The translations under genes were made by a program, and so were the position numbers. DNA of 64,000 nt, taken from contig CAYLQD010000004.1 of NCBI GenBank assembly GCA_964385685.1, positions 29,397 to 93,396 on the forward strand, in the 5' to 3' direction. Source of the stretch: an uncultured Planctomycetota bacterium. GTDB lineage: Bacteria; Planctomycetota; PUPC01. Every line of letters starts with the position of its first letter. The first letter of the stretch is position 1. Positions 39,905-63,000 of the stretch are shown here, one piece after another. Under the pieces are notes generated by a model that was not told where the DNA came from, did not search any database, and saw only the letters and a list, made by a program, of their open reading frames with translations.

Positions 39905-39906
39905 CC

Positions 39907-43390: not shown

Positions 43391-43523
43391 TGCTTGCTCC
43401 AATGGCCCGCGTTCGCGCCGGATGATACGAGTGGCCCGGCGTAGTGTCAAGCTCGGCCCGCACCCCACTCGACCCTCGGCCCGGCCCCGGCTATAATGTT
43501 TGGAGAGTTCGTGGAGGAACGGT

Positions 43524-44635: not shown

Positions 44636-45994
44636 GTGTCCGCTCAGGAGCGTGATGTGGCTCGGAAGCCGAAACGTGGTTCCGGCCTGGCCGTGCTCGT
44701 GCTCGATGACGAGGACGGCATCCGGACGATGTGCCGCGAATACCTCGACTCCGTCGGCTGCGAGGTCGAGGAGGCCGCGACGATTGCGGCTGCTCGGGCG
44801 GCGCTCGAGAGCCACACGTTCGGCCTCGCGATCTTCGACGTGCGCCTGCCCGACGGCTCGGGGCTCGACCTGTTCCGCTCGGTGCGCGAGAGCCGGCCCG
44901 ACTTGCCCATCGCCATCATCACGGGCCACGCCTCGGTCGAAGACGCCATCGACGCGGTCAAGGCCGGCGCGCTCGACTACATCACGAAGCCCTTCGACCT
45001 CGACCGCCTGAAGGAGGTCGTCGCGCTCGCGGCCGCCCAGATGCCGGCCGACGCCGCCGACCGCCGCAGCGGCACGTTCGATTTCCACGGCATCGTCGGC
45101 GCGTCGACGCCGATGCGATCCGTCTGCCAGCTCATCGAGCGCGCCGCGCAGACGCCGTCGACCGTGCTGATCCAGGGCGAGAGCGGGACCGGCAAGGAAC
45201 TGGTCGCCAAGGCCATCCACCTGGCCGGACCGAACACGCGCGAGCCCTTCGTGCCCGTCGACTGCAGCTCGATGCCCGAGGGCTTGATCGAGAGCGAGCT
45301 GTTCGGGCACGTGAAAGGAGCGTTCACCGGCGCCCACGTCGACAAGGTCGGGCTGTTTCCGTCGGCCGGCAAGGGCACGGTGTTTCTCGATGAGATCGGC
45401 GAGCTGCCCCAGCCGCTGCAAGCGAAACTCCTGAGGGCGCTCCAGGAACGCGAGGTCCGGCCCGTCGGCTCGACCGACACCACCCCGTTCCACGCGCGCG
45501 TGATCGTCGCAACCAATCGCGACCTGCGGTCCGCGATGGCCGACGGCGAGTTCCGCCGCGACCTCTTCTACCGGCTGCACGTCATCCCCGTCTACCTGCC
45601 GCCGCTGCGGTCTCGCCGCGCCGACATCGCGCCGCTCGCCGCGCACTTCCTCGAGGAACTCAATGCCGCCGCGGGCCGCACGTGCACGCTCGCGCGCGGC
45701 GCGCTCGACGTGCTCGAGCGCCGCAACTGGGCGGGCAACGTCCGCGAGCTTCAAAACGCCATCGAACGCGCGTTCGCGCTCGCGACCGGGGACATGATCG
45801 GCCCGGAAGAGTTCGGGGAGCCCGAGCAGAAACCGGAGCCGCCACGTCAGGGCGACCGGCTCGAGGACTACGAGCGGCAGGCCATCCAGACCGCGTTGGA
45901 GAAGGCCGGGGGCAATCGGGAGAAGGCGGCCGAGATCCTCAAGATCGGCGTCGCCACCCTCTTCCGCAAGCTGAAGAAATACGATCTGAAGTAG
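44636..45994 (+). CDS. sigma-54-dependent response regulator (NtrC family)
   Basis: Receiver (VLVLDDEDG…D…K), GESGTGKE, GAFTGA, C-terminal Fis-type HTH. Start GTG 44636 or GTG ~44660 (AGGAG upstream). Confidence 0.9.
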   Translation: MSAQERDVARKPKRGSGLAVLVLDDEDGIRTMCREYLDSVGCEVEEAATIAAARAALESHTFGLAIFDVRLPDGSGLDLFRSVRESRPDLPIAIITGHASVEDAIDAVKAGALDYITKPFDLDRLKEVVALAAAQMPADAADRRSGTFDFHGIVGASTPMRSVCQLIERAAQTPSTVLIQGESGTGKELVAKAIHLAGPNTREPFVPVDCSSMPEGLIESELFGHVKGAFTGAHVDKVGLFPSAGKGTVFLDEIGELPQPLQAKLLRALQEREVRPVGSTDTTPFHARVIVATNRDLRSAMADGEFRRDLFYRLHVIPVYLPPLRSRRADIAPLAAHFLEELNAAAGRTCTLARGALDVLERRNWAGNVRELQNAIERAFALATGDMIGPEEFGEPEQKPEPPRQGDRLEDYERQAIQTALEKAGGNREKAAEILKIGVATLFRKLKKYDLK

Positions 45995-46037
45995 CCGCCG
46001 TCGGGAACTGAATCGCCGTGGGGAAGTGGGAGCAGGT

Positions 46038-47444
46038 ATGCGGACGGGAATGAAGGCGTCGATCATCCCGTTGGTGCTGGCCGCCGTGACCGTGGCCGGT
46101 TGTCGGTCGGCGCCGACGCCAGAGACACCCGCCTGGCGGACACAGATCGAGGCGGCTCTCGACAGCCCCATGACCTTCGATTTCGTCACTACCCCGTTGG
46201 ATGATTGTGTCGCGTTTTTCAGGTCGAGGTTGCGCGTGAATATCGTGGCGGACAAGGAGGAGCTATTCGACCGCGACGACATCGACGTCACGCTCAAGGT
46301 CGCCAAGACACCGTTCCGAGACGCGCTTCAGCAGATCTGCGATAAGCTCGGGCTTGTCTACACAATCGAGCACGGGGCTATCTTCATCACGACACAAGAA
46401 GCTCTCGCCACGCGCCGGCCGCCGGGTACCCCGGCCGACGGCTGGCCCCGGACGATGCTCGAGCTGCGGCACGGTACGTCCGCCGAGAGGCGCCTTGCCG
46501 CCGCGCTTGATCAACCCGTTTCCTTTGAGTTCGTGACTGAACCGTTCGTCGGCGTAATCGGCGGAATCTGCCAAGCCACGAGGATCAAGTGCACCCTCGA
46601 CGGCGAGGCGGTGGTCTCCTCGCAGGGCGCTCGGCTGACGGCAACGGCCAAGAACATGAAGCTGAAGAGCTCACTGGAGTTCGTGTGCGATCACTTCGGT
46701 CTCGACTTCACCGTTCGCGGCGCAGCAATCTACATCGCCGACCGTGAAAGGGTCGCCGACGAGAACCGCGTGAACAAGCGCGTGTACGAGGAGCGCGCGC
46801 GGACGCGCCGCCGCGCGGCCGACGCGCTGCGCGACCCGGAAGCCGAGCGGTACATCGCTGTTCGACTGAGCGAACTTGTATCTTTTGACTTCGTCGTGAC
46901 GCCACTCGAGGACGTGGTCGGGTTCCTGAGCGGCCTCAAGAAGGTCAACATGGTGATCGACGAGAGGGGCATGAAGGAGCGCGAGCACCTCGACGTGACC
47001 CTGCGCCTGAAGGAGGTCCGCCTCGAGGACGCCCTGCACTGGATCACCGTCTTGCTCGACCTCCACCATGTTGTCCGCGATGGCGCCATCTTCATATCGA
47101 CAAGGGAGGGCATCCGTGCTCGCGACTTCACGACGATGACCCGCTACGACCGGAGGGAGTGGCGGCGAACGAAGGGGGCGATGAAGAAACGCATCTCTGT
47201 TCGCTTCGTCGGGACATCGCTCAGGGACGTCGCCAAGGCGGTGAGCGATCAAGCGGGCGTTCCGGTGCGTATTGGCCCGGAACTCCCGAAGGACCATCTG
47301 CCAGACATCACGCTCCGTCTCGAAAACGTCAAGGTAGCATCGTTTCTCGCGCACATGTGCTATCTACACGACCTCGCCTACACGGTCCGCGACGGGGTGG
47401 TGATCATCACCAGTCGCGACCGGCTGCTGGAGCCGGAGGAATAG
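46038..47444 (+). CDS. lipoprotein with four tandem secretin-N/STN-like domains
   Basis: Lipobox LAAVTVAGC. The module …SFDFVxTPLxDVVxFLxxxxxVNIVxD…DVTLxLxxVxLxDALxxI…LxYxVxxGAIxIxT is repeated four times. Confidence 0.55.
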   Translation: MRTGMKASIIPLVLAAVTVAGCRSAPTPETPAWRTQIEAALDSPMTFDFVTTPLDDCVAFFRSRLRVNIVADKEELFDRDDIDVTLKVAKTPFRDALQQICDKLGLVYTIEHGAIFITTQEALATRRPPGTPADGWPRTMLELRHGTSAERRLAAALDQPVSFEFVTEPFVGVIGGICQATRIKCTLDGEAVVSSQGARLTATAKNMKLKSSLEFVCDHFGLDFTVRGAAIYIADRERVADENRVNKRVYEERARTRRRAADALRDPEAERYIAVRLSELVSFDFVVTPLEDVVGFLSGLKKVNMVIDERGMKEREHLDVTLRLKEVRLEDALHWITVLLDLHHVVRDGAIFISTREGIRARDFTTMTRYDRREWRRTKGAMKKRISVRFVGTSLRDVAKAVSDQAGVPVRIGPELPKDHLPDITLRLENVKVASFLAHMCYLHDLAYTVRDGVVIITSRDRLLEPEE

Positions 47445-47460
47445 CTGCGGGCCGCCGGCC

Positions 47461-48267
47461 CTACGCGACGCTCTGGCCGTCGATGGTGCCGGCGTGGATC
47501 TCGATCTGGTCGCGATCCTTGATGCTCGCGATCTGCCCGTCCGTCAGGTAGACGACCCGGTCGGACGCGGCGAGCATCTTGTGGTCGTGGGTCGCGCTCA
47601 TGATCGTGACGTGAAAGTCCTCCTTGAGCCCCTCGAGCATGTCGATGATCTCCTCGCCGGTGTGCAGGTCGAGATTGCCCGTCGGCTCGTCGGCGAGGAC
47701 GATGGCGGGATCGTTGGCGAGCGCCCGGGCGACGGCGACCCGCTGCTGCTGCCCGCCGGACAACTCGGACGGCTTGTGGAACCGTCGATCACCCAGGCCG
47801 ACCCGGTCGAGCAGGTCGGCGGCCTTGTCCTGGGCGTCCGCCTGCGACAGCCCGGCGAACAGCATCGGGAACATCACGTTCTCCAGCGCCGTCGCGACCG
47901 TGATCAGGTTGAACGTCTGGAAGATGTAGCCGATCTTGTGGCAGCGGAGCCACGCCAGCTCGAACGTGTCGAGCGCGGCGATGTCGACCTCGTCGATGTA
48001 GACGTGTCCCTCGTCGGGCTTGTCGAGCCCGCCGATCATGTTGAAGAGCGTCGTCTTGCCCGAGCCGCTCGGGCCCATGATCGAGACGTACTCGCCGCGC
48101 TTGACGCTCAGGTCGACGCCTCGGAGCGCGTGCACCTCTTCCTCGCCGACCTGGAAGACGCGCCGGACGCCGACGGAGCGGATCACGTGCACCGCGAGCA
48201 GTCCGCTCTTCTCAAGGGCCTGCTCGTCCGGCAGCGCGGCGTTCGCGTTGTCTGTCGCGTCCGTCAT
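47461..48267 (-). CDS. ABC transporter ATP-binding protein (MacB/LolD/FtsE-like, type VII ABC)
   Basis: Maximal ORF to 48873 has a non-coding-looking Arg/Gly-rich extension. ATG 48267 gives MTDATDNA… with Walker A GPSGSGKTT, LSGGQQQR and ADEPTGNLD. Confidence 0.85.
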   Translation of the reverse strand: MTDATDNANAALPDEQALEKSGLLAVHVIRSVGVRRVFQVGEEEVHALRGVDLSVKRGEYVSIMGPSGSGKTTLFNMIGGLDKPDEGHVYIDEVDIAALDTFELAWLRCHKIGYIFQTFNLITVATALENVMFPMLFAGLSQADAQDKAADLLDRVGLGDRRFHKPSELSGGQQQRVAVARALANDPAIVLADEPTGNLDLHTGEEIIDMLEGLKEDFHVTIMSATHDHKMLAASDRVVYLTDGQIASIKDRDQIEIHAGTIDGQSVA

Positions 48268-48269
48268 AC

Positions 48270-49016
48270 TCACACTTCCGACCGCATCGCGTCGACCGGC
48301 TGCATGCGGGCCGCGCGCCACGCGGGATAGAGCGCCCCGACGACCGTCAGGGCGGTGCCCGTGAGCAGGCAGATGCCGACCCACTTGAGCATCTCGAGCG
48401 CGGGCAGGACGTCGCGGCCCAGAACCGACGGACCGAAGACGACCGTGGCCTCGGCCAGGGCCAGCACGACGCCGATCACAATGCCGATCGCCGTGCCCAC
48501 AATTCCCTGAAACGTGCTCTCCAACAGAAACAACTCGACGATGAGGCCATCGAGCGCGCCGAGACACTTCATCGTGCCGATTTCCTGGAATCGCTCCGTG
48601 ACACTCAGCAGCATCGCGTTCAGAATCCCGACGAAGCTGACCAGGAGCGCGAGCCCGACGAGCCACCGGGTCTGCGACTTCGCCGTCTCGTCGCTCACGC
48701 GCGACAGCGCCCCCTCGTTTTCCAGCCGCTGCTTGATCTTGGGCGGACCATTCTCGACGAAGCTCCGCGTCAGGCTGTCGGAGCAGAGGATGTACGTCAG
48801 GAACGCGAGGGCGAGGATGATGCCGCTCGTGACGAGCAGCGACCGGACCAGGCGAACGCGGATGTTCCTCCATGCGATCTCGAGGGCCTTCCGGAGCGGC
48901 AGTTGGACCTGCTGCTCGATTGTGCCGTGCAGCGACGGCCGGCGGCCCGATGTCGCGTCCTCGTTCTGGCTCGTCAAATTACTTCCCGCCCTTCTGCGGC
49001 TCCCGGTCGACGGCAA
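48270..49016 (-). CDS. FtsX-family ABC permease (short, 4-TM type)
   Basis: N-terminal LRKALEIAWRNIRVRLVRSLLVTSGIILALAF (FtsX TM1 signature), then a periplasmic segment and three C-terminal TMs. ATG 49016 overlaps the upstream gene by 38 nt; an internal GTG at ~48908 is an alternative start. Confidence 0.65.
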   Translation of the reverse strand: MPSTGSRRRAGSNLTSQNEDATSGRRPSLHGTIEQQVQLPLRKALEIAWRNIRVRLVRSLLVTSGIILALAFLTYILCSDSLTRSFVENGPPKIKQRLENEGALSRVSDETAKSQTRWLVGLALLVSFVGILNAMLLSVTERFQEIGTMKCLGALDGLIVELFLLESTFQGIVGTAIGIVIGVVLALAEATVVFGPSVLGRDVLPALEMLKWVGICLLTGTALTVVGALYPAWRAARMQPVDAMRSEV

Positions 49017-49365
49017 CCACGACCAGACCCTTCGAGACGAGCGTCCTCAAATACTGCGTCACCGATATCTCCGCCTCCGCAACGCTGATCTCATGCTTCT
49101 TCGCGAACTGCCGCACCATCGACCGCGTGGTCGTCTTGCCGTCGCACGCATCGTAGACTTCCGCGCCGAGCTTGTCGAGCCGGAACGAGCGGCGGACGGT
49201 CTTCGATCCGGCCAGCCAGCCCAGCCATTTTCGCGGCTCGAGTTCGATGACGATCGTCACGCCGCCGTCGTCGCTCTCCTCGCGGCCGACGGCCGGCGCG
49301 TGCTCGGGCCGGGCCCTGAGCGCCCGGTCGCGGTCGAACGCCGGTTTCGGCTTCGAGAAAGCCAT
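48979..49365 (-). CDS. PqqD-like protein (RiPP precursor-recognition element / peptide chaperone family)
   Basis: From ATG 49365: …SFRLDKLGAEVYDACDGKTTTRSMVRQFAKKHEISVAEAEISVTQYLRTLVSKGLVVV matches the PqqD winged-helix pattern (…G…W.L.DG.…T..EI…L…Y.V……D…FL..L…GL). Confidence 0.6.
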   Translation of the reverse strand: MAFSKPKPAFDRDRALRARPEHAPAVGREESDDGGVTIVIELEPRKWLGWLAGSKTVRRSFRLDKLGAEVYDACDGKTTTRSMVRQFAKKHEISVAEAEISVTQYLRTLVSKGLVVVAVDREPQKGGK

Positions 49366-50300
49366 CACGCTCCTGCGCCCTCGCCCAAGAGCGCCCAGTT
49401 CATTCGCCCGATTGCCGCGGCCAGCATCGATTCGTCGGGCCGGCCCGGCGCATCGTGTTCCGCCAGCAGCAGGCGGTCGAGTTCCGTGTCGACGACGGCG
49501 ACGGACAGGACCTCTCGCGGCGAGCAGGACCCGAGCGGGAACGCGAGCCGCTTTCGCCCGGGCTGCCGCGTGCCCTCGAGCGTGCGCCCGAACGATTCCG
49601 CGCTCCACGGCCCGCCCTTGCCGGCGTCTTTGTATCTCCGGTGCTCCTTGAACGGCCACGTGCGCATCCAACGCTCGACCGGCCGCCGCGCGAGCGCCGT
49701 CTCCGCAGGGTAGACTTGCCTCAGCCAGAGGCAAGAGCCGTCGCCGCCGCGGAATCGCAGCGCCAGGTCGCCCAGCACGAGCTTGTGGTCGAGCGGACGA
49801 CAGCCCGCGGGCGACTCGAAGCTCGCCCCGAACACGGACCAGGCGATTGCCCTGCCCGTCTCCGAGACGACAAGCGAGGGCAGGACTTCCGCGGCCACGG
49901 TCCGTCGCGTCCGTTTCGCCGCGTCGAGGTTGACGGTCACCTCGATCACGAGCCCGGCCGCGGGCGCGTAGCCGTGCCAGAGCCGCAGCGGCGTCCGGCC
50001 GCTGCCGCTCTCGTCGCGCACCCAGGCCGTCTCGGAGAACCCACCGGGCCCCGGTGCGCCGGGCCCGGCGTCACGAGCTTTCAATGAGCGGAGCCGCCGC
50101 CGTATCCAGCGCCCGGCGTCGAATCGCTCTTTGCCCGGGCGCCACCACCGGATCTGAAACGCCGGCTCGTCGCCGCTGCCAAGAATCATGTTTCCCTGTC
50201 GCCAGCGGCCACTGATGCGCAGTGGGCGCCAGTCGGATGGGACACGTACCTGCCAGCCCATCCACGCCACACAAGTTGCACCCGTCCGCCCGCTGTCCAT
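49365..50300 (-). CDS. hypothetical protein (unknown function, Trp/Arg-rich)
   Basis: Maximal ORF to 50705 overlaps the 3' end of the upstream transporter gene; ATG 50300 is the first start beyond it. Its stop overlaps the PqqD-like ATG. No recognisable motifs. Weak call. Confidence 0.35.
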   Translation of the reverse strand: MDSGRTGATCVAWMGWQVRVPSDWRPLRISGRWRQGNMILGSGDEPAFQIRWWRPGKERFDAGRWIRRRLRSLKARDAGPGAPGPGGFSETAWVRDESGSGRTPLRLWHGYAPAAGLVIEVTVNLDAAKRTRRTVAAEVLPSLVVSETGRAIAWSVFGASFESPAGCRPLDHKLVLGDLALRFRGGDGSCLWLRQVYPAETALARRPVERWMRTWPFKEHRRYKDAGKGGPWSAESFGRTLEGTRQPGRKRLAFPLGSCSPREVLSVAVVDTELDRLLLAEHDAPGRPDESMLAAAIGRMNWALLGEGAGA

Positions 50301-50341
50301 CACCGTACTGTGCCTATCCCTCCTTTGCGGTCGGCGCACGA

Positions 50342-52339
50342 TCAGACCGGCAGCTTGATGACGCTCTTGGCCATGAGCACAATGCCCATGCTGAACATGG
50401 CGATCAATCCCACCCCCGCGCCGAAGCCCGCCGTGAATACGATGCGGTAGCGCGGCCAGTTGTCGCCGAACCGCTTTCGGAAGACAAACCGCCCCATGAC
50501 GGCGCCGAGCACGAGCGGAATCGTCGACGACGGATCCGTCTGGTTCAGCCCGTAGACGACCCCGTAGACGAGGAAGATGGGCAGGCCGAATCGGTCGAGC
50601 ACGAAATACACGGAGAGCGCCAGGCCGAGCGCGGCGGCGATGACCTCGGGCCGGAATGCCTCGCGGAACGGGCTGGCCGACTCGCCCGGCAGCGTCGCCG
50701 ACCACATCAGGCCCTCCCGATACGCTTGCAGTTCCCAGAATTCGTTGGCGTACGGAAACAGTTCACTCGGCACGGGCCCGATAGACCAGATGAACTGGCT
50801 GAACAGGATCGTTCCGACGAACATCACCGGGAAGATGATCAACTCGGCCTTGATGAGCGACGTGAACCTCGTGCCGGTCAGTTCGGTTTGCCGGAACATG
50901 ACGACCTGGTTGGCGTAGGCGTGCAGCGGAATGGGCGCGAACCAGATGGCGGCGCCCTTGTAACCCGAGAGAACGAAGGTCGCCTCGCGCACGTACGGAA
51001 TCGCCGCCTGCTGCCCGACGATCCCCTCGAGCCGCGCCGACACATAGCTCATCACGGGCGTGTAGACGAAGCCGTAGAAGATGAGGATCCACAGCGGGAA
51101 GCTCCCGCCGCGCAGCGGACCCGAGGCGTGGTTGACCAGCCAATACGACAGCACAACATATGACGTCGTGGAGAAGAAATAGATCCCGATGCTGATCCAG
51201 ATCGGAATATCGCCGCGGGTCGTCGGCGGCTTGAACAGATTCTTCCACGTCACCTCCGACGTCGACAGTTCCTTCATCGCGCCGGCCTTCTTTCGGAAGG
51301 AACTGAAGACGTGGATGAAGCCGATGATGGCGACGGCGAGCGACAGCCCGATGGTGAAGCTGAAATAGAAGTCCATCGTGTTCGACTGGATCGTCTGGAT
51401 TGCGCCGATCCCCTCGCGCCAACTGTCGAGCACGCCCGTGTGGTGCAGGATGGGGTTGGCGATCATCGTGACGATCAGCCCGACGAGGGTTCCCATGACG
51501 GCCCAGAACGGCATGACCATCCCCGTCATGAAGAGCCCGAGGTTGAAGCTGATCATGACGGGCATCGCGGGCAGTAACTTCTCGGTGAACGACGTGAGAT
51601 CGACGAAGGGGAGCGGGAGGATCTGGATGCCTTCGGTGAAGACCGCAGCGGTGATGTTCGGAATGGCGAGGTAGACGGCGCCGAAGACGATCCCCGTCAT
51701 GGCGCCGAGCGCGAACGTCCGCCAGCGCCACGTCTCCTTCTGGCTCGATGCGTCGGCCAGCGCCGTGATGCCCATCGCGCCGACGGGGGCCATCGGGAAC
51801 GGCAGCCGCTCCACGTCGGACGTCAGCCGGAACATCAGGTAGCCCAGGCCGAACCGGTCGATGCGCGTGATGAGCCACGTCAGCAGCATGAGGCCGAGCG
51901 GCATCAGCCACGGCCCTACGAGAAAACTCCGCTGGTTCAGCACGTTCTCGTCCGTCGGCGCGTACCACGCCGGGATGTAGTCGGTCAGCCCGATCTTCCG
52001 GATCTCTTCGCTCTGCGCGAGGAACTGCCGCCAGAGAAGTCCCTGGCCCGCCGTCACCATCACCGCGCTGCACATGTACCAGAGGACGAAGATCTCGGGC
52101 CGCCGGAGCCGCTTGAACGCGCGGCGGGAGATCTCGACATAGAGGATCACGGTCACCCAGTTCGCCGCCCCGCCGGTCCCGGCGTTCCCCGCGACGAGCC
52201 CCACGTACAACTGCGACGGGGCCATCACGAGCCCGACGAACAGGGCCATGAAGACGGCACCCCACCCGAACCCGCTCTCGAACCGCTCGGGCGGCCTCAT
52301 CAGGTCCCGGAATTCCTGGAGTTCCCTGTCCTCACGCAT
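50342..52339 (-). CDS. polytopic membrane transporter (~16 TM; possibly OPT-superfamily oligopeptide transporter)
   Basis: 665 aa, highly hydrophobic throughout. Length and topology resemble OPT-family transporters. No diagnostic motif could be verified by eye. Confidence 0.5.
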   Translation of the reverse strand: MREDRELQEFRDLMRPPERFESGFGWGAVFMALFVGLVMAPSQLYVGLVAGNAGTGGAANWVTVILYVEISRRAFKRLRRPEIFVLWYMCSAVMVTAGQGLLWRQFLAQSEEIRKIGLTDYIPAWYAPTDENVLNQRSFLVGPWLMPLGLMLLTWLITRIDRFGLGYLMFRLTSDVERLPFPMAPVGAMGITALADASSQKETWRWRTFALGAMTGIVFGAVYLAIPNITAAVFTEGIQILPLPFVDLTSFTEKLLPAMPVMISFNLGLFMTGMVMPFWAVMGTLVGLIVTMIANPILHHTGVLDSWREGIGAIQTIQSNTMDFYFSFTIGLSLAVAIIGFIHVFSSFRKKAGAMKELSTSEVTWKNLFKPPTTRGDIPIWISIGIYFFSTTSYVVLSYWLVNHASGPLRGGSFPLWILIFYGFVYTPVMSYVSARLEGIVGQQAAIPYVREATFVLSGYKGAAIWFAPIPLHAYANQVVMFRQTELTGTRFTSLIKAELIIFPVMFVGTILFSQFIWSIGPVPSELFPYANEFWELQAYREGLMWSATLPGESASPFREAFRPEVIAAALGLALSVYFVLDRFGLPIFLVYGVVYGLNQTDPSSTIPLVLGAVMGRFVFRKRFGDNWPRYRIVFTAGFGAGVGLIAMFSMGIVLMAKSVIKLPV

Positions 52340-52354
52340 GGCTTTGCCTGTCCC

Positions 52355-55300
52355 TTATGCCTCGAGCGGCATGCCGCTCTCGGTCGCGCGGGCGATGTAT
52401 TCCAGTACGCGGTCGATCTTGAGCTTTCGCCAGCCGAGCAGTTGCCGGCGCAGGTCGCCCAGCAGCACCCGGTTCAGTTTTCGCCACGTCCGAATCTGGC
52501 CCGAGCGTCGCACCAGTTCGACGTCAATCTCATACACGTCCGGCTCGGTCGCAGACACGTGGACGGTGATCGTGACGTCTTGCCGCACACCGAGGTCGTA
52601 GGGAGCCAGCCAGACCGTGCCGCGCACGATGTGCACCTCGCGTCCGTCGTCGTCGGTGTCGCAGGACTTCTCGAGGTTGTCGGCGCTGAAAACGCCGATG
52701 GTCCCACCCCGGTGCGCGTCCATGTATTCATAGATGAACACGAGGATGCCGCCGGCCGTCCTCGGCGTCGCGGTGAAAGGAAGTCGGTCGCGGATGGTGT
52801 CGCCGTCCGGCAGGGGCACCTTCCAGGTCATCTCGTTGCTCGGGGTGGCCAGCTTGCCCGCGAGAAACGCGGGCACGAGCGACGAGACGATGACGGTCGC
52901 CAGCACGATGAGCATTGTAAAGATGGCCTGGCCGCCGGAGTAGTTGAGCGTCACGCCCGTCATGAGCCCCATGCTGGAGAAGAGCTTGGCGGCGCCCTGC
53001 CCGACGACGTATCCGAAGACGGAGCCCATCAGCCCGTAGGTGAGGGCCTCGGCAAGGAACAGGAAGCCAACGTGGAGCGGGGCCAGCCCCAAGCTCGTGT
53101 AGATGTAAATCTCGCGCTTGCGCTCGGCGATGGAGCTGAGCATCGTGTTGAAGATGATCAGGCCCGCGATGGCGAGCGGGATGACGAGCGCCTTTGGCGG
53201 CTTCGGGATCGGCAGCGTCGACGCCATCACCTTGACCTTGCGCCTAGGGGCGCCGTAGTAGACGGGGAACGCCAGCCGGTCGGCAAGGCGCTCTGCAAGC
53301 TCTTTCGCTTTTTCATACGAGCCAACCGGCACGGTCAGGTGCCGCAAGCTGCCCGCGTAGAGCCCGCGGAGCAGCGAGGCGTGGACGATGACGACCTGGT
53401 CGCCGGGCGCGTGCGGCGAGTCCTCGACGCTCACAAGCGCCGACCCCGACGTCATCTCACGCGTCATCTCGGTCAGGTCCTGCCGCGTGACGCGGGTCCG
53501 TTGCTTGTCATCCAGGATCGTGAAGTCGAACGGCAGGATCGACCGACCGTCGAGACGCTGGACCTGCTGGTCGAAGACCTTCGGCTTGAACGTGCCGAGC
53601 AGTTCGAGCGACCGCCCTGCGATGACGACTCGGCCGCCCGGCTCGACACCCAACCGCTCGGCGGTGTCGGCGGAAAGGTAGCAGCCGTTGCCCGAGTCGA
53701 ACCGCGACCAGTTCGGACAGAACCGGTCTATGCCGGAGCAGTCGGCCTCGCGCCCCACTAGCCCGAGCGCTGCGCTGAGCGATACCTGATCGCCCGTCAC
53801 GGGATTCCGCGCGTGGACGCGCCACTTCGGGTCGTTGCTCACCCACCAGTACCGTGGCACGACGGCGCGCGGCCCCGGCACGATCGTCTCCAGACTCTCG
53901 AGCGCTTCGTCCGGCATGGCGCGCGACGAGGGCTGAGCGACCAGTACGCCCGTGAACGGAGCCGTGGTGTCCAGCTCCATCTCCTTCTTGTCGTCGTACG
54001 TGCTCGTCGACATGTAGCACAGGAGCGCGAACGTGATCAGCACGATCGTGATGCCCGTCAGGGCGGTCCGCAACTTGCGCTTGCGCATGTTGGCGATGCC
54101 GAGCCGAATGGCCGTGTAGGCGAGGCCGATGCGCGACGTGCGGGCGCCGCTCGCCTCGGCGCGCCCGCTCCGGAACTCCTCGAGCAGCCCCTCGAACTTC
54201 GAGAAGATCATCCCCATGACGAGCACGCTCATCCCGAGCGCTGCGAACGCCATGATGACCATCAGCGGCTGGCCGGTGATCCGAAATGCCGGGTGGAAGC
54301 TCCACAGCGCGGCCGCCATCAGGACGAACACCCCGAGGACCGCGCCGATCTGCTTGTAGATGTTCGGTGATGCGAACAGGAGCCGCTCCATGACGAACGC
54401 GAACGGCACGGCCATCAGCAGGAGGAAGATGGCTCCCCTGACGACGTCGTTGGCCGTCTCGCGGATGGCCTTGTAGGCGCGGACCTCGTTTGCGAGCGCG
54501 GCCGTGGCGGCGGCCGTGAACGCGCGGCCGTCGTCGCGGTCTGCAGCCGCGGCCTCGTCGGCGGCGTCGAGTAATCCTTTGGTCTCCGCCTGCATCGCCT
54601 CGATGTGCTCGCTCGCGATCCCGGCACGCTTGTACTTCTCGACGCGCCGGCGGTCGAGGCGGTAGAAGTCGCGGGCGGCCTGAAGCACCGGGCGCTCCGG
54701 CGACCGTTCTTCGGCGCTGAACCCCCGCATGGCCTTGCGCATCGAGAGAGCGGCGGCGCCGGGGTCGTCGGGGTCGACCACGTTCAGCAGCGCCATCCGG
54801 TTCTCGGTGATCCCGTGCCGCAGGAGGAGCTGCCACCGGACGCTCGGCTCGACGAACATGACCATGTGCCCCGTCTGCCGCGTGAAGTTGAGTCGCTGCG
54901 GCTGGCTCCCGCGTCGCGCGTCGTGCACCTTGCCGTCGGGCAGCATCAGGAGGAACCGCGGGTCGAAGAAATCCACGACGGTCACCTCGGTGCAGTCGAA
55001 CATGACGGCCCGGAGTTCGTTGGGGTTGCGGTCGTTGATGTTCACTTGGAGCGATCCGCCGCGCTCGCCCTTGAGGAGATCGGCCCGGCGAACGAGACGT
55101 CCGTCCTCCGCGGCCAGTGACGGCTGGATCGTGTAGTAGTGGCTCCACCCCGACAACGGAATGAGGTCGAAGCGGAAGCGCCCGTCGACGCGCGTGAATG
55201 CGAACTCGAGACGCCGTACGCCGGGCACTGGATCATGCCACGCGACGGTCGATCCAGAGAGCGCCCACCCCGGCACGTAGGCGACGAGGTATCCCTCCAT

Positions 55301-57775
55301 CGGCACGCTCGGGACGGGCTCGCCGGGCGACCGGTCGACGATGACGCCGTGCACCCGCGTCCACTTGACCGGCGACTGCGCAATCGGCACAAACGTTGTG
55401 TCGCCGAGCACGGTCGTCAGGAGGAAGAACGTGGCGTCGATCTGCGGCGCGAGCCGCCGCCAGTCGAGCCGCTCGGCGAGATCGTTCGGCGTGTCGACGT
55501 AGAGCCGCTCGGCGTCGAGGGTGTTCCACGCCATGCCGGCCGTGGCGAAGCTCGCCGCGGGCGCCGAGATGTTCGCCACGCGGCCCACGACCTCCGACCA
55601 CGGCGACTCCGTGCCTTCATGTGCGTTCAGGCTGACAGCCGGCCGCAACGTCTCGGGCCAGAACTTCCCGTCCGCCTGCGCGTCCTTCATCTGGAGCCAG
55701 TTCGTGAGCGAGCCGGCGTCGCGCCTCCCGTCCCACTGCATGAAGCTCCCGACGAGACAGGGGCCGGCGACAACGCCTGCATCGGACAGGTCAAGCCCGA
55801 GGAGGAATCCAAGCGGGCGGTCGAGCCGATCCGTCAGGCCGAGCAGGTCGAGCATCTCACGGCGGCGGGCCTCCCGCTGACGGTATTGCGCGACAACATG
55901 CCCGGTGGCAGCGAGTTGCCTTCGGATGCGACTCCGCGCCAACTGCCACAACTCGTCCGCGATACGGCTGGACGCGATCGCATTGAAGTCCTCGTCGGTG
56001 AACTTGCTCCCGTCGGCGAGGAGGGTGGAGTCGACCGTCTTGCACGCCTCGACCAACGCTCGCGCAACATCCGCGGCCGGGCGGGTCCCGTCGGCAAGCT
56101 CTAACGATCCCGGCGGCCGCTGCCCACCGGCGAGGGCCGCGATGTCGACCGGTGTCAGCTTGCCGCCGCCAGCGAGGGTGATCGATGCCAGGAGAGAGCG
56201 GGCGCGCTTCATCGACCGGAAGTCCGCCTCCGTCATCGCCCGTCCGCCGGCGAGCTTGAACGAGTCGATGTCCTTCAGCGGCGCGTCGGTGTGGAGGCGG
56301 CGCTGGGCGCCATAGTAGTGGATGCGCTCCGTGTCGAGCCGTGTGGCCTCGTCCTGAAGCGCGTATGTCCGAAGCGACAGCTCCCGAACCTCTCGCTTCT
56401 TCTCGGCGATCAGTGTCGCCGATCCCCCGGTTGATGTTTCCTCGAGCGACTCGATCTCGGCCTCGAGAGCGGTTCGCTCGCCCCGTAGGCGCGACAGCTC
56501 GGTTCGCTTCGGATACAGGATCGTCTCGATGGCGACGACGCGGCGGGCGACCTCATCCTTGAGGTAGCGGCGCAGGTCGCGATACCTCGACTCGTGCAGC
56601 CGGCCCATCGCGTCACGGCGGGCGAGCATCCTTGCCTCTTCCGTCGCCGCGCTGCCGGACTTCCCGACCCGGCTCGCCAGAGCGCTCTCGTATTCGGTGT
56701 CGATCTCCTGGGCCAGCAGCTCATGCGCCCCGTAATCCTCGGCCACATCGAAATCGTCCGAGAGGTGCGCCTCGTAGTCCTTGGGGACCGTCGCGAACGC
56801 TCCAAGCATCTCGCGGACGCCGCGCTGGCCGAGCCCATACGCATCGGTGAACGCAACCAGCAGCGGCCGCTTGGGCGGATGGCGGGTCGTGTGGCGGAGG
56901 AGAGTGAGCCCGAACGCCACGTCGATGGCGGCGTCGGCGCCGGGAGCAAGCCCCGGCACCAGGCTCATCGAGTCGTAGTGCACTCCGACGACGAACGCTT
57001 GGCGATTCTGCGGGCGCCTCGCCGGTTCCGCGGGCAGCACGAGAGCGTAGATGTTCCGAGCCGTCTTCCGCTCCCAGCGGGCGCGGCACACCACCGTTCC
57101 GTTGTGCAGCTCGCCGGCCCGGAGCGCCCTGGCAAGTTTTCCGTCGGGCACGTAGAACCGCGGGATGTTGATCGGAATGCTGAGCAGGTGGGAGCGGAGG
57201 TCGCGGTACGTCACGTCCGGCGAGCCGAGCACGATGATCGCGCGGGCGCCGGCGTTGTACGCGTTCATCCAGCGTTTCCCGCCCGTGGCTTCCATCACGG
57301 CGATCTGCCCGCTGACGCCGCTCGCCGGCAAGTGGCCCGGCGCTCGGCCCGGCCTTCCCTCGCCGATGTAGACCAGTCGCCCGCTGATGCCGCCGGACGG
57401 CGTCGTGACCAGCCGTGAACCCGACGGCCAGAAGGGATAGACGGGGTGCTCTCCCGAGCCGGGTGCCGTCAGCGTGGCCTCAAGAACTTCGGGAAGAACG
57501 ACGGAGAATTCGTGGGTGCGAACGATGACGCCGGGGATCGCTTTGATCCGTTCGAGCAGCGCGGCGCCGGCCGCATCGTGCGACTCCGTGCCGACAACAC
57601 GCGTCGGAAAGCTCGCGAGCCACTCGGTGTCACGGCGTACCGACGCCACCAGGTCGGATGCGTCCGGTTCGGCCGCAACGGCCGCGCCGGCGGCCAGAAG
57701 GAACGCGGTGAGCCCGGCGCAGAGGCGAGCCAGCATAATCCCGTCCCGGTGCTTGCCAGGGGAATCGGCAGCCAC
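52355..57775 (-). CDS. giant secreted/membrane fusion protein: signal peptide + PA/degenerate M28-peptidase-like ectodomain + coiled coil + unknown domains + MacB/FtsX-type permease module
   Basis: 1806 aa. Signal MLARLCAGLTAFLLAAGAAVAA. M28-like segment NIYALVLP…AFVVGVHYDSMS…GADAAIDVA…LLVAFTDAYGLG with metal ligands altered (HYDS for HxD, DA for EE). FtsX TM1 signature RIGLAYTAIRLGIANMRKRKLRTALTGITIVLITFALL, a ~370-aa periplasmic domain, then an FtsX C-terminal 3-TM bundle (…LSSIAERKREIYIYTSLGL…). Confidence 0.7.
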   Translation of the reverse strand: MAADSPGKHRDGIMLARLCAGLTAFLLAAGAAVAAEPDASDLVASVRRDTEWLASFPTRVVGTESHDAAGAALLERIKAIPGVIVRTHEFSVVLPEVLEATLTAPGSGEHPVYPFWPSGSRLVTTPSGGISGRLVYIGEGRPGRAPGHLPASGVSGQIAVMEATGGKRWMNAYNAGARAIIVLGSPDVTYRDLRSHLLSIPINIPRFYVPDGKLARALRAGELHNGTVVCRARWERKTARNIYALVLPAEPARRPQNRQAFVVGVHYDSMSLVPGLAPGADAAIDVAFGLTLLRHTTRHPPKRPLLVAFTDAYGLGQRGVREMLGAFATVPKDYEAHLSDDFDVAEDYGAHELLAQEIDTEYESALASRVGKSGSAATEEARMLARRDAMGRLHESRYRDLRRYLKDEVARRVVAIETILYPKRTELSRLRGERTALEAEIESLEETSTGGSATLIAEKKREVRELSLRTYALQDEATRLDTERIHYYGAQRRLHTDAPLKDIDSFKLAGGRAMTEADFRSMKRARSLLASITLAGGGKLTPVDIAALAGGQRPPGSLELADGTRPAADVARALVEACKTVDSTLLADGSKFTDEDFNAIASSRIADELWQLARSRIRRQLAATGHVVAQYRQREARRREMLDLLGLTDRLDRPLGFLLGLDLSDAGVVAGPCLVGSFMQWDGRRDAGSLTNWLQMKDAQADGKFWPETLRPAVSLNAHEGTESPWSEVVGRVANISAPAASFATAGMAWNTLDAERLYVDTPNDLAERLDWRRLAPQIDATFFLLTTVLGDTTFVPIAQSPVKWTRVHGVIVDRSPGEPVPSVPMEGYLVAYVPGWALSGSTVAWHDPVPGVRRLEFAFTRVDGRFRFDLIPLSGWSHYYTIQPSLAAEDGRLVRRADLLKGERGGSLQVNINDRNPNELRAVMFDCTEVTVVDFFDPRFLLMLPDGKVHDARRGSQPQRLNFTRQTGHMVMFVEPSVRWQLLLRHGITENRMALLNVVDPDDPGAAALSMRKAMRGFSAEERSPERPVLQAARDFYRLDRRRVEKYKRAGIASEHIEAMQAETKGLLDAADEAAAADRDDGRAFTAAATAALANEVRAYKAIRETANDVVRGAIFLLLMAVPFAFVMERLLFASPNIYKQIGAVLGVFVLMAAALWSFHPAFRITGQPLMVIMAFAALGMSVLVMGMIFSKFEGLLEEFRSGRAEASGARTSRIGLAYTAIRLGIANMRKRKLRTALTGITIVLITFALLCYMSTSTYDDKKEMELDTTAPFTGVLVAQPSSRAMPDEALESLETIVPGPRAVVPRYWWVSNDPKWRVHARNPVTGDQVSLSAALGLVGREADCSGIDRFCPNWSRFDSGNGCYLSADTAERLGVEPGGRVVIAGRSLELLGTFKPKVFDQQVQRLDGRSILPFDFTILDDKQRTRVTRQDLTEMTREMTSGSALVSVEDSPHAPGDQVVIVHASLLRGLYAGSLRHLTVPVGSYEKAKELAERLADRLAFPVYYGAPRRKVKVMASTLPIPKPPKALVIPLAIAGLIIFNTMLSSIAERKREIYIYTSLGLAPLHVGFLFLAEALTYGLMGSVFGYVVGQGAAKLFSSMGLMTGVTLNYSGGQAIFTMLIVLATVIVSSLVPAFLAGKLATPSNEMTWKVPLPDGDTIRDRLPFTATPRTAGGILVFIYEYMDAHRGGTIGVFSADNLEKSCDTDDDGREVHIVRGTVWLAPYDLGVRQDVTITVHVSATEPDVYEIDVELVRRSGQIRTWRKLNRVLLGDLRRQLLGWRKLKIDRVLEYIARATESGMPLEA

Positions 57776-57884
57776 TTCGCGCCACGAGGCGCTCCGCCAT
57801 TCCCCCGGTCCTGCCGGGGAACGGGCGGTGGAGGGTTTATATCAGCCCCCAACGGCCAAGTCAAGATGAGGCGAGGCCGCGCGG

Positions 57885-58901
57885 TTACAGCGCACGCACC
57901 GGCACCCGGCGCCCCTTCTTCGAGCTTTCGATCACGGCGAAGACCATCGCGAGCGACTTGATGTTGTCGTGGCACTCGCACTGCGATGCGCGGCCGGTCC
58001 GCAGGAACCGCAGCATCTCGCGCAGCCCGCCGTGCATGGCGCCGTGCTTTATCGACGCCTTCGGCACGCTGACGTCCTTGAGCGGCCGGCAGAACCCGTC
58101 CTTCTTCGCGATGGCTTGGCCGTGCGGATCGCCGTCTCGCTCGTAGAGCAGCGTCCCCTTGTCGCCGATGAGACGCCAGTCGCCGTTCCAGCTCGTGTGA
58201 CATCCCTCGCTGCACCAGCTCCCGCGGTAGGTGAAGACGACACCGTTCGTCATCTCGAAGATGCAGCTCGCCGACACGTCGCCCTTGTACCACGAGCCCT
58301 TCGGGTTGAACTCTTTCGCGTAGACGGCGACCGGGTCTTCGCCGCTCAGGAACCGGGCGAGGTCGAAATGGTGAATGGCCATGTCGAGAATGAGGGGGCT
58401 GGGCATCAGGTCGCGGAACCCGCCGAAGTGCGCCCCGACGTAGAAGTCGCAGTTGAGCGTCGTCAGCGTGCCGACCTTGCCGCCTGCAACCGCGCGGCGG
58501 ACGCGCTCATGCTTCGCGTCCCACCGCCGCGACTGGCTCACCATGTACATCTTGCCCGTCTGCTCCGACGTGCGGACCATCCGGCGCGCCTCGGCCATGC
58601 TGTTCGCCATCGGCTTCTCGCCGACGACGTGGCACCCGGCCCGGAGCGCCGTGCACGTGACGCCGCAGTGCGCCTCGGGCACGGTCAGGTCTGCGACGAA
58701 GTCGGGCTTCGTCTTCTTGAGGGTCGCCTTGAGATCCTTCGACGCTTTGCAGGCGAGTTCGTAGCGCTCGATCGCATCGGCGGCCCGCTTCACGTCGAGA
58801 TCCACGACGCCGACGACTTCAACCTTTTCTTGCTTCAGCGGCGGGAACCACGCGTTCGAAATCCCGCCGGCCCCGACCACAACGGCTCGTATCTTGGCCA
58901 T
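57885..58901 (-). CDS. Gfo/Idh/MocA-family NAD(P)-dependent oxidoreductase
   Basis: MAKIRAVVVGAGGIS Rossmann N-terminus. EKPMA motif. GGAGTG Shine-Dalgarno before ATG 58901; maximal ORF extends to 58955. Confidence 0.85.
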   Translation of the reverse strand: MAKIRAVVVGAGGISNAWFPPLKQEKVEVVGVVDLDVKRAADAIERYELACKASKDLKATLKKTKPDFVADLTVPEAHCGVTCTALRAGCHVVGEKPMANSMAEARRMVRTSEQTGKMYMVSQSRRWDAKHERVRRAVAGGKVGTLTTLNCDFYVGAHFGGFRDLMPSPLILDMAIHHFDLARFLSGEDPVAVYAKEFNPKGSWYKGDVSASCIFEMTNGVVFTYRGSWCSEGCHTSWNGDWRLIGDKGTLLYERDGDPHGQAIAKKDGFCRPLKDVSVPKASIKHGAMHGGLREMLRFLRTGRASQCECHDNIKSLAMVFAVIESSKKGRRVPVRAL

Positions 58902-59006
58902 TCTTCTCACTCCGTCAGTCAGGCAACTCTTGATGCAGTTCCCCGCGGCAGCCATTCGCCGCGATTTGGCGCGAGATGATAGCGAATACAGACGGCGCCC
59001 GCAACA

Positions 59007-59912
59007 TCATTCGGCAAGGCGGCTCTTAGAGGCCGACCGGAACATCGGCTGGAGGAAGAGGCGGCCCGAGGCGCCCTTCCCTTCGAAGCGGACGTAGGAT
59101 TCGTCGCCGACGGTGTGCTCGAACCGCGTGCCGTCGGTCGCCGACAGGATCGCTCCGCCCGGCCCGATGAAGCGCCCGGTGCACGGTTCGGCGGTGACCA
59201 CTTCGATTCGCCCGTCGTCCACGCCGACGCTGTCGAGCAGCAGCCCGGTTGATGCGTAGACGCGCCCGCTCTTCGCGGCCTCGATGATGGCACGCTCCGT
59301 CACGTCTTCGACCAGGACCATGTTGAACGCGTTGTCGAAGTCGGCGGGCTCGTGGAAGTCGTCGTTCGCGAACCCCCAAACGCAAACGCCGGCGGTCAGG
59401 AACTCGTCCCACAGGCGCGTGTAGATCGGCTGGCAACCGGCCTCGGCCATGCGGTCGATCCCGTAGTGGCCGTTGTAGACCTCGATGCCGTCGGGCGTCC
59501 GCTCAAGGAGCGACCGCATCTTGTCGATGGTCCAGTACTCATCGCCGGGCCGCGGCTCGGGGTGGCAGAGGATCGTCAAGAGATCGCCCGCTCGCGCGGC
59601 CGCTTCCGGCAAAGGCCGCTCGAGCACATCCCTTGCCCCCTGGCCGACGAAGAGGATATTTTCGCCGCGGCTGTACTCGAAGCCGTCAAGGAGGAGGATG
59701 TCGGGGTGCGCGGCTCGAAACGCCGCGAGATCGGTCACGTGGTCGTGGTCGGTGACCGCGAGGAACCGCGCACCGATGCGGTCGTAATCGCGAACGCTCT
59801 CGGCGAGCGGGACGGACGAGCAGCCGCTGTGCTCAGTGCAGTGCCCGTGGAAGCTCCCGCGGATCCACGTGCCTCGCTTGTCGGCATACGGATTGAGTAG
59901 TGTGTCGGCCAC
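59007..59912 (-). CDS. PHP-domain metal-dependent phosphoesterase
   Basis: GSFHGHCTEHS…VTDHDH…LCHP…NGHYG His/Asp pattern of polymerase/histidinol-phosphatase-type domains. Confidence 0.65.
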   Translation of the reverse strand: MADTLLNPYADKRGTWIRGSFHGHCTEHSGCSSVPLAESVRDYDRIGARFLAVTDHDHVTDLAAFRAAHPDILLLDGFEYSRGENILFVGQGARDVLERPLPEAAARAGDLLTILCHPEPRPGDEYWTIDKMRSLLERTPDGIEVYNGHYGIDRMAEAGCQPIYTRLWDEFLTAGVCVWGFANDDFHEPADFDNAFNMVLVEDVTERAIIEAAKSGRVYASTGLLLDSVGVDDGRIEVVTAEPCTGRFIGPGGAILSATDGTRFEHTVGDESYVRFEGKGASGRLFLQPMFRSASKSRLAE

Positions 59913-59919
59913 GGATCCC

Positions 59920-63000
<3,081 letters not shown>

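Follow-up and report, generated by a model that had tools for sequence, protein, structure and literature searches.

A conserved type VII ABC gene set with a giant pseudo-peptidase-bearing FtsX protein and an OPT-like permease across bacterial phyla

The 64,000-nucleotide stretch of DNA analysed here (the window; contig CAYLQD010000004.1, positions 29,397 to 93,396 of the forward strand, from an uncultured Planctomycetota bacterium) carries at 47461-57775 six co-directional open reading frames (ORFs) on its minus strand, which we call genes A to F. We argue that they represent a real, conserved and undescribed system, belonging to a large multi-phylum family of ATP-binding cassette (ABC) machines, of type VII, with an unprecedented set of partners, whose composition, topology, folds and conservation across phyla are documented below. 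In the reading that we favour, with a probability of roughly 45%, the operon encodes a self-contained inner-membrane machine, in which a type VII ABC mechanotransmitter is combined with a non-catalytic periplasmic binding domain, an OPT-like permease and two cytoplasmic adaptors, C and D, and which works in the direction of uptake or recycling. The architectural part of this reading is probably correct, and the uptake direction specifically is proposed tentatively, with the odds against it. The genes are as follows.

Gene A, 52355..57775, minus strand: 1806 aa from GTG; giant FtsX-type permease (Pfam FtsX, PF02687, E=1e-13; weak M28 match at E=0.006)
Gene B, 50342..52339, minus strand: 665 aa; divergent OPT-superfamily polytopic membrane protein (Pfam OPT E=0.005, below the Pfam cut-off)
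Gene C, 49365..50300, minus strand: 311 aa; cytoplasmic protein with a tandem Mog1/PsbP/DUF1795(Eag)-like alpha-beta fold (no Pfam or NCBIfam match)
Gene D, 48979..49365, minus strand: 128 aa; cytoplasmic PqqD-like winged helix (PF05402 E=8e-9)
Gene E, 48270..48977, minus strand: 235 aa; short FtsX-type permease with four transmembrane (TM) helices (Pfam FtsX E=4e-16)
Gene F, 47461..48267, minus strand: 268 aa; LolD/MacB/FtsE-type ABC ATPase (ABC_tran E=5e-34)

This is the single, tight operon that the initial annotation had described: all six ORFs lie where it had placed them, A and B are 15 nt apart and B and C 41 nt, C and D overlap by 1 nt, and D-E and E-F are spaced by 1 and 2 nt, respectively. 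The overlap between C and D likely couples their translation. An identical operon is present in two independent metagenome assemblies, on both of which the gene call for A starts at the ATG at 57736; this is likely the true start and gives a protein of 1793 aa (residue numbers below are counted from the GTG). The gene call for E on the independent assemblies is likewise 235 aa. C, D and F have no hydrophobic segment in a TM scan, from which we conclude that they are cytoplasmic.

Homologues of A are widespread. Among the matches listed there are 138, ranging from 66% down to ~28% identity, with the best at E=0, and their hosts are Planctomycetota, Kiritimatiellae, Sumerlaeota, Hydrogenedentes, Gemmatimonadota, Desulfobacterales and Anaerolineae; they are annotated only as 'hypothetical' or 'FtsX-like permease'. 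A scan of one genome per species yielded at least 583 related loci, and an exhaustive HMMER search with the last 707 residues of A gave 1144 clusters (at 50% identity) with E<=1e-30; giants of 1450-1800 aa that end just past the same C-terminal domain make up nearly all of them. Gene neighbourhoods were surveyed in 86 loci by a search of their six-frame ORFs, iterated once and with score thresholds of our own choosing, with hidden Markov models of B to F and of a seventh component, G, introduced below; components were counted in the 46 loci that have 10-kb flanks. F was found in 34 of these 46, D in 31, C in 30, E in 24 and G in 19. B adjoins A in 42, which makes it the most constant partner of A, a partnership that had been overlooked in the initial annotation. 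The latter had named loss of the PqqD-like gene from the company of the ABC genes as an observation that would refute it; D stays with them in those 31 loci, across phyla.

The order (G)ABCDEF(F) recurs in Planctomycetota (including Phycisphaerae), Brocadiia, Sumerlaeota, Lentisphaerae/Victivallis and Armatimonadota, and EFAGB(CD) in Desulfobacterota, where the isolate Desulfopila sp. IMCC35008 has E-F-A-G-B-C-D. Poribacteria have ABCDF and Desantisbacteria CDEFGAB; a Verrucomicrobia locus (L015 in our numbering of loci) contains every one of the seven families, arranged as ABEFFG while D and C lie on the other strand, and in some genomes, for example that of Fontivita pretiosa, A and B stand alone. 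Since A has homologues at E=0 and gene order is kept across phyla, the gene set is far beyond what chance would produce. No further gene family common to the phyla was found near it in the 86 loci, and the set is thus self-contained. What neighbours it has are lineage-specific, such as GT4/GT28-like glycosyltransferases and a histidine phosphatase in Desulfobacterota, or dehydrogenase, pyridoxal-phosphate-enzyme and metallo-beta-lactamase-fold genes in Poribacteria. In a Kiritimatiellae contig (L001:20291-24968), ~5 kb downstream of A-B, we noted a 334-aa protein, a 618-aa DUF6785/DUF6784 protein and a protein of >1219 aa with a faint M28 match; the system may be paralogously duplicated in that genome.

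The giant protein A is built as follows.

Residues ~13-31: signal peptide or anchor
Residues ~45-330 and ~650-790: PA/M28-like pseudo-peptidase
Residues ~330-645: helical insertion of ~320 aa, splitting the PA/M28-like domain
Residues ~800-1000: beta-sandwich domains
Residues ~1030-1110: helical stalk
Residues 1111-1191: three extra TM helices
Residues 1237-1640: canonical FtsX unit, with its first TM helix at 1237-1255, a MacB_PCD-like periplasmic domain at ~1270-1525 and TM2-4 at 1529-1640
Residues 1641-1806: conserved cytoplasmic C-terminal domain of ~165 aa

In a search of PDB profiles, a profile built from 13 diverse homologues of A matches the PA-domain aminopeptidase 2ek8 (E=1e-21) and YwaD, and also MacB, YtrF, LolF, LolC/E, nicalin, nicastrin and the transferrin receptor. 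An AlphaFold2 model of residues 14-1110, made from 68 sequences, reaches a mean predicted local distance difference test score (pLDDT) of 93.7 and a predicted template-modelling score (pTM) of 0.90, and presents an M28/PA body with the ~320-residue insertion (its helices up to ~50 residues long), beta-sandwich domains and the helical stalk. The ectodomain thus has the M28 fold. Its active site is another matter. M28 enzymes such as the Aeromonas aminopeptidase hold a co-catalytic zinc site and the catalytic glutamate in a series of His, Asp, Glu-Glu, Asp and His, in which Glu-Glu provides the catalytic base and a zinc ligand. This Glu-Glu motif is absent from all 13 diverse homologues, where the position reads AY, GH, GD and similar; the first His is not conserved either, and GAD becomes GAS or GAE in subfamilies (the motif positions were placed by eye from knowledge of M28 enzymes, not by structure-based alignment). 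Conserved in their stead are D268, R757, D765 and Q778, which are invariant, together with D662, L663 and S664, which are invariant or nearly so and lie within a strongly conserved LDLS motif. We read this pattern as that of a conserved binding pocket which would have no catalytic function, and, with Glu-Glu missing in all subfamilies, we reject a permease fusion with a secreted, active enzyme, be it an aminopeptidase or a glutaminyl cyclase. Profile matches, model and lost motif together bear out the extracytoplasmic region of >1000 aa with a degenerate, transferrin-receptor-like PA/M28 domain that had been proposed from the translation. Pfam searches found no further domains in the helical insertion, the beta-sandwich region or the stalk.

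The membrane part of A holds two elements that the initial annotation did not list, the three extra TM helices and the C-terminal domain. The extra helices are highly conserved, with invariant E1130, R1131 and H1161-P-A-F, and their loops are too short for an ATPase-coupling helix. Altogether A has ~8 hydrophobic segments in the TM scan, and only one unit has the long TM2-TM3 loop typical of FtsX. The MacB_PCD match is below the cut-off in the window's protein (E=0.003) and above it in homologues (E=7e-9 and 1e-6). In an NCBIfam search the sole match of A is to ADOP, with 29 bits, and LolC/E is not matched; A falls far short of the curated LolC/E, MacB and FtsX cut-offs, and the giant is therefore not the routine family member that would have undermined the initial annotation.

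In the FtsX protein E, TM1 and TM2 are separated by just ~35-40 residues on the periplasmic side, and hence there is no MacB_PCD domain. E, too, stays far below curated families (70 bits against 362 for lolCE and 23-29 bits against 225-255 for FtsX, with MacB likewise far off). The translation of F has an intact Walker A (GPSGSGKT), signature (LSGGQQQR), Walker B (LADEPT) and H-loop (THD); its nearest NCBIfam families are LolD, MacB, YbbA, DevA and FtsE, none of whose cut-offs is reached (LolD 226 bits against 308, FtsE 195 against 265, MacB cut-off 966). The combination of two different FtsX-type permeases with one MacB/LolD-type ATPase is thus as initially described. Several Lentisphaerae, Phycisphaerae and Verrucomicrobia loci have a duplicated F, as adjacent paralogous ATPases (L003:20462-21250; L015, L016, L018, L020 and L021; for example L016:19866-20636), which would fit a heterodimeric ATPase on a heterodimeric permease.

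One alternative, which we regard as unlikely, is an FtsEX-like regulator of envelope remodelling, whose ABC part would serve no transporter and would mechanically switch an activity outside the cytoplasm, at the outer membrane or the peptidoglycan; it might do so by bringing in or turning on a hydrolase whose gene lies elsewhere, with the helical insertion and the pseudo-peptidase as a docking platform and B at most salvaging released peptides. FtsEX-EnvC, PcsB and CwlO are an established precedent of FtsX proteins that do not transport, the ~320-aa insertion recalls the coiled-coil adaptors of such systems, and context genes that vary by lineage would suit a housekeeping role in the envelope. 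No hydrolase, LytM or amidase gene is, however, conserved with the system in the 86 loci, and the near-obligate OPT-like partner and the C·D pair would be left unexplained. The same alternative could draw on the Poribacteria-type giants (L050:8912-16309 and P0101; ~2100-2300 aa), which have a weak, partial N-terminal LysM match of ~25 bits (cut-off 20.9) that hints at an ectodomain in contact with peptidoglycan; this match is confined to one lineage. These giants have a weak PA-domain match too, and gene E is absent from their loci.

B had been annotated as an OPT-like permease from the window's protein; a Sumerlaeota orthologue (L004) covers positions 120-622 of the 623 in the OPT profile (E=6e-12, 45.4 bits against a cut-off of 25.8), and this nearly end-to-end match, above the gathering score, upholds the assignment. 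Another orthologue (L003) reaches 23.8 bits. A crude scan gives B at least 8 hydrophobic segments. The seventh component, G, is a protein of ~630-690 aa with Pfam DUF6785 and DUF6784 (E down to 1e-82; examples at L003:7930-9939, L004:7616-9688 and L006:14380-16284), which adjoins the giant in the 19 loci counted above, precedes A in Phycisphaerae and Sumerlaeota loci (as a protein of ~670 aa), and is absent from the window; a literature search found no paper on DUF6785/DUF6784. An hhalign comparison identifies B and G as remote homologues that align collinearly over 557 columns with a probability of 83-86% and have an ERL(P/A)FP motif in common, and the system therefore has one or two permeases of the OPT superfamily.

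The remaining two proteins are cytoplasmic. C, whose N-terminus is conserved in orthologues (public gene calls start later and make it 274 aa long), matches the Mog1/PsbP/Eag-like fold, its relatives being PsbP, DcrB, LpqN, Tsi3 and SciW/Eag at 4-16% identity among the top 15 matches. No catalytic signature was found in it, and C is a non-enzymatic, cytoplasmic binding fold. D and C co-occur almost always. That D is PqqD-like, as first annotated, is borne out by PF05402 (36.1 bits against a cut-off of 23.4); D thus carries a recognition domain of the RRE/PqqD type (RRE, RiPP recognition element; RiPP, ribosomally synthesized and post-translationally modified peptide), and the consensus of 50 orthologues retains the typical LD..G..Vw..cDG motif. 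D has an N-terminal extension of ~50 aa and, in a homologue search, 4 close orthologues only. In NCBIfam it scores 24.9 bits for lasso_PqqD (cut-off 80) and 18.7 for PQQ_PqqD (cut-off 46), and is therefore a member of neither curated family; its PDB match to the lasso-peptide PqqD chaperone is weak (E=0.9).

The PqqD fold is best known from RiPP pathways, where it recognises the leader peptide, and the initial annotation had taken D to suggest a RiPP-like peptide substrate, while remarking on the lack of precursor, cyclase and protease. The latter remark holds and the former suggestion is not supported. ORFs of 20-100 aa that start with ATG were clustered, both those inside the gene sets of the related loci and those up to 1.5 kb away, and none proved common to phyla; the gaps in the operon, at most 41 nt, have no room for a precursor gene; the neighbourhoods of the 86 loci show no conserved enzyme of the cyclase, protease, radical SAM or YcaO kind; and C has a non-enzymatic fold. 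A RiPP cluster is thus rejected as the primary reading. Tools that mine genomes for 'RRE-containing' regions would probably score this operon as a potential source of peptide natural products, a reading for which the present evidence gives no support. A single small ORF recurs, encoding ~58-62 aa with two hydrophobic helices; Poribacteria and one unclassified bacterium have it between A and B (among others at L043:14198-14383, L045:16566-16751, L050:16435-16620 and L034:5565-5738), and the window does not have it. It does not resemble a precursor and could be a small membrane subunit specific to the lineage.

The same evidence bears on a broader proposal towards which the initial annotation leaned, namely that the system exports or matures a peptide or small protein whose gene lies elsewhere: the Eag-like C and D in its capacity as RRE would hold the client in the cytoplasm, B would export it, and the ectodomain would receive or expel it in the manner of MacB. 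We consider it quite improbable. The Pfam match of D, the known leader-peptide recognition by its fold, the SciW/Eag chaperones for secreted effectors among the relatives of C, and the outward action of type VII ABC systems would all fit; the missing precursor and modifying enzymes, the curated lasso and PQQ cut-offs that D does not reach, and the import by characterised OPT proteins speak against it.

How might a machine of the kind that we favour work? In the type VII systems whose structures have been characterised, helices transmit motion to periplasmic domains instead of forming a pore. With a single FtsX unit in A that is fit for coupling, a symmetric ATPase dimer calls for another FtsX protein, E; the canonical unit of A would thus pair with E, and two copies of F would dock onto them (A·E·F2). 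ATP-driven motion would then travel via the FtsX helices to the MacB-like periplasmic domain of A and on to the ~1100-residue ectodomain, and, as in MacB, LolCDE and FtsEX, no substrate would pass the membrane via the ABC part itself. The dead PA/M28 aminopeptidase with its conserved acidic and basic pocket would serve as a binding or gating module, not as an enzyme, much as membrane complexes employ the inactive M28 domains of nicastrin, nicalin, GPAA1 and the transferrin receptor. B, an almost constant neighbour that is joined in many lineages by its remote paralogue G, would be the only plausible membrane conduit for the ligand of the ectodomain. C and D, which overlap by one base, are cytoplasmic and both have folds that bind peptides or segments, look like an adaptor or chaperone pair; they would bind a stretch of peptide in extended form, belonging to the transported ligand or else to some tail of the machine itself, perhaps close to A's C-terminal domain, with delivery, receipt or regulation as their role. 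As to direction, import is what characterised OPT transporters carry out, and the enzyme from which the ectodomain descends holds peptides by their N-termini; for these reasons we prefer ATP-assisted capture of a peptide-like ligand and its hand-over to B for uptake or recycling.

Several observations weigh against this proposal. To our knowledge, the characterised type VII ABC systems all act outward or activate periplasmic enzymes and none assists a secondary importer, so that the uptake direction runs against precedent; likewise, we know of no OPT protein that works with an ABC system. The window's B scores 16.1 bits for OPT (PF03169) against the cut-off of 25.8, and its family is a divergent relative of the OPT family whose transport role is predicted from sequence. 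The A:E:F2 stoichiometry is probable by analogy with LolCDE (LolC/LolE/LolD2). Poribacteria do without E and several loci consist of A and B only, which would imply that the ATPase is encoded elsewhere or that A homodimerises. A profile of 11 sequences of the C-terminal domain of A found no PDB or Pfam relative, and the flanks, which vary by lineage, contain no lineage-independent context genes hinting at a substrate.

In its boldest form, which we hold to be speculative and unlikely to be right, the proposal describes a new, hybrid class of transporter, in which a giant, nicastrin-like pseudo-peptidase receptor in the periplasm, driven by the ABC part through ATP hydrolysis in the cytoplasm, captures a peptide-like ligand (environmental oligopeptides or cell-wall peptides) and feeds it to a dedicated OPT permease, to be received in the cytoplasm by the PqqD/Eag-like pair. 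If true, no earlier case would be known of a secondary importer assisted by an ABC system, and the 'substrate receptor' principle of dead M28 domains would have its first counterpart in bacteria; the ABC-to-OPT coupling, if real, could be categorically new. The family extends over a dozen phyla or more, which are dominant in sediments, sponges and soils and have barely been studied experimentally, and it unites parts not known from any one system before: a dead M28/PA ectodomain, OPT-like permeases and proteins of the PqqD-like and Eag/Mog1-like kinds. Its characterisation would tell what several 'hypothetical' families do, namely the giant, C, DUF6785/DUF6784 and the C-terminal domain, and could show that bacteria use the pseudo-peptidase principle of nicastrin and nicalin. 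The question is testable, since cultured hosts exist in Desulfopila sp. IMCC35008 and Fontivita pretiosa.

Turning to the setting of the operon in the window, a promoter-like site lies in the 110-nt gap upstream of A (57836..57864, minus strand: TTGACT at 57864-57859, a spacer of 17 nt and TATAAA at 57841-57836). It is a consensus match only and was found by eye, the automatic scan having missed TATAAA because it demands T at position 6 of the -10 hexamer. An Rfam search of 46000-60000 was empty at E<=0.1: no riboswitch was found within the operon or upstream, nor any RNA element of another kind. The operon stands amid glycan-degradation genes; such genes (GH10, fucosidase, GHL10) also flank the system in other loci of the Planctomycetes-Verrucomicrobia-Chlamydiae group, and not in Desulfobacterota or Poribacteria. 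The flanking genes are:

39091-40977, plus strand: radical-SAM protein of 628 aa, encoded 6.5 kb away from the operon, with a lysine-2,3-aminomutase C-terminal domain (LAM_C) and a long extension at the N-terminus
40937-43633, minus strand: GH2 mannosidase-like enzyme
44636-45994, plus strand: sigma-54-dependent response regulator, 1.5 kb downstream of the operon
46026-47444, plus strand: secreted protein of 472 aa with about four repeats of ~115 aa and weak FecR_C/STN similarity, convergent with the end of the operon
57885-58955, minus strand: GFO/IDH/MocA oxidoreductase
59007-59912, minus strand: 301-aa protein with no family match
59920-62988, minus strand: GH2 beta-galactosidase
63191-63967, minus strand: sulfatase

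The radical-SAM gene is probably unrelated to the PqqD gene, given its distance and the fact that it is not conserved with the system. The response regulator precedes the gene of the 472-aa repeat protein, and the two are adjacent on the independent assemblies too; the pair is not conserved with the system in other phyla.

To turn to comparison with known families, residues 1100-1806 of A (window 52358-54478) match the PADLOC profile PDLC01991, 'CARF_m8--CARF_LolE_TM', at E=3e-47, with three times the score of the generic FtsX model, the match covering the extra helices, the FtsX unit and the start of the C-terminal domain; PDLC01990, 'CARF_Beta-galactosidase_LolE_TM', which at 1791 positions is as long as A, is matched more weakly, collinearly and in part. 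In the A-family proteins tested, the PDLC01991 matches (154-196 bits) cover positions ~9-684 of 810 at most and end at ~600-684, and the C-terminal domain of A alone has no match to this profile at E<=1. The A family are therefore relatives of the CARF_m8 'LolE TM' family, not members of it, and the part that they lack is probably the CARF-bearing end. These partial matches and labels point to a sister giant-FtsX family with a CARF sensor and to another with a different ectodomain. An anti-phage defence system was rejected, these partial matches being the only ones in PADLOC; B, C and D had none (F was not scanned).

A relative labelled as a sensor suggests that the cytoplasmic tail can be a regulatory position, and thereby a sensor or detoxification module of the BceAB kind, in which a compound active on the envelope would be sensed or sequestered by the ectodomain, with signal relay by C, D and A's C-terminal domain. 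BceAB-type FtsX permeases with large extracellular domains do combine sensing with resistance, and a response regulator is encoded nearby in the window. Such a module is nevertheless very improbable: no two-component system is conserved with the operon, the CARF_m8 match lacks the last part of the profile, the C-terminal domain on its own is not matched, and the role of B would be unexplained. BceAB, moreover, has a ten-helix permease with the large domain between TM7 and TM8 and an adjacent BceRS-type two-component system, whereas A has its ~8 hydrophobic segments and its large domain at the N-terminus.

The architecture that we favour can finally be set against each of the families from which its parts are known. 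The inactive M28/PA ectodomains of nicastrin in gamma-secretase, nicalin in the BOS complex, GPAA1 in the glycosylphosphatidylinositol transamidase and the transferrin receptor are eukaryotic and not ATP-driven, whereas that of A is bacterial, fused to an ABC permease and split by the helical insertion; the likeness is one of fold and logic and implies no descent. With the OPT family (PF03169, TC 2.A.67), B shares its polytopic topology, a similar size and, in its orthologue, nearly the whole profile, but it is very divergent and neighbours a giant FtsX protein. C differs from the Eag/DUF1795 chaperones such as SciW, and from the Mog1/PsbP fold at large, in being a cytoplasmic tandem of two such domains at very low identity and in its genetic surroundings, with no type VI secretion system here. 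D shares with PqqD and the lasso-peptide B1 proteins the PqqD domain and its motif, but its operon has neither a precursor nor a partner enzyme such as PqqE, the B2 protease or YcaO, and D is partnered instead with a Mog1/PsbP-like protein and membrane transport genes. No paper and no curated family was found for the combination of FtsX, M28, OPT and PqqD, in agreement with the initial annotation, which had not recognised it as a described system.

Among type VII ABC systems, the operon resembles MacB(-MacA-TolC), LolCDE and FtsEX in the four-helix FtsX units of A and E, the probable MacB_PCD-like domain of A and the LolD/MacB/FtsE-type ATPase, and LolCDE in particular in having two different permease proteins with one ATPase. 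It differs from them in that it misses all curated cut-offs widely and has no MacA/HlyD adaptor (no adaptor-like family is conserved near the system in the 86 loci, and none is encoded in the window's flanks), no LolA/LolB logic and no EnvC-like partner; by cut-offs and missing adaptor, a routine LolCDE, FtsEX or MacAB is ruled out. A adds to the common plan an ectodomain of ~1100 aa, three TM helices and a cytoplasmic C-terminal domain, E is nearly without a periplasmic domain, and near-obligate OPT-like and PqqD/Mog1-like partners are not known in MacB, LolCDE or FtsEX. Type VII systems, BceAB included, are the model for mechanical work that bacteria perform outside the cytoplasmic membrane, and each new set of partners has revealed a new process in the envelope.

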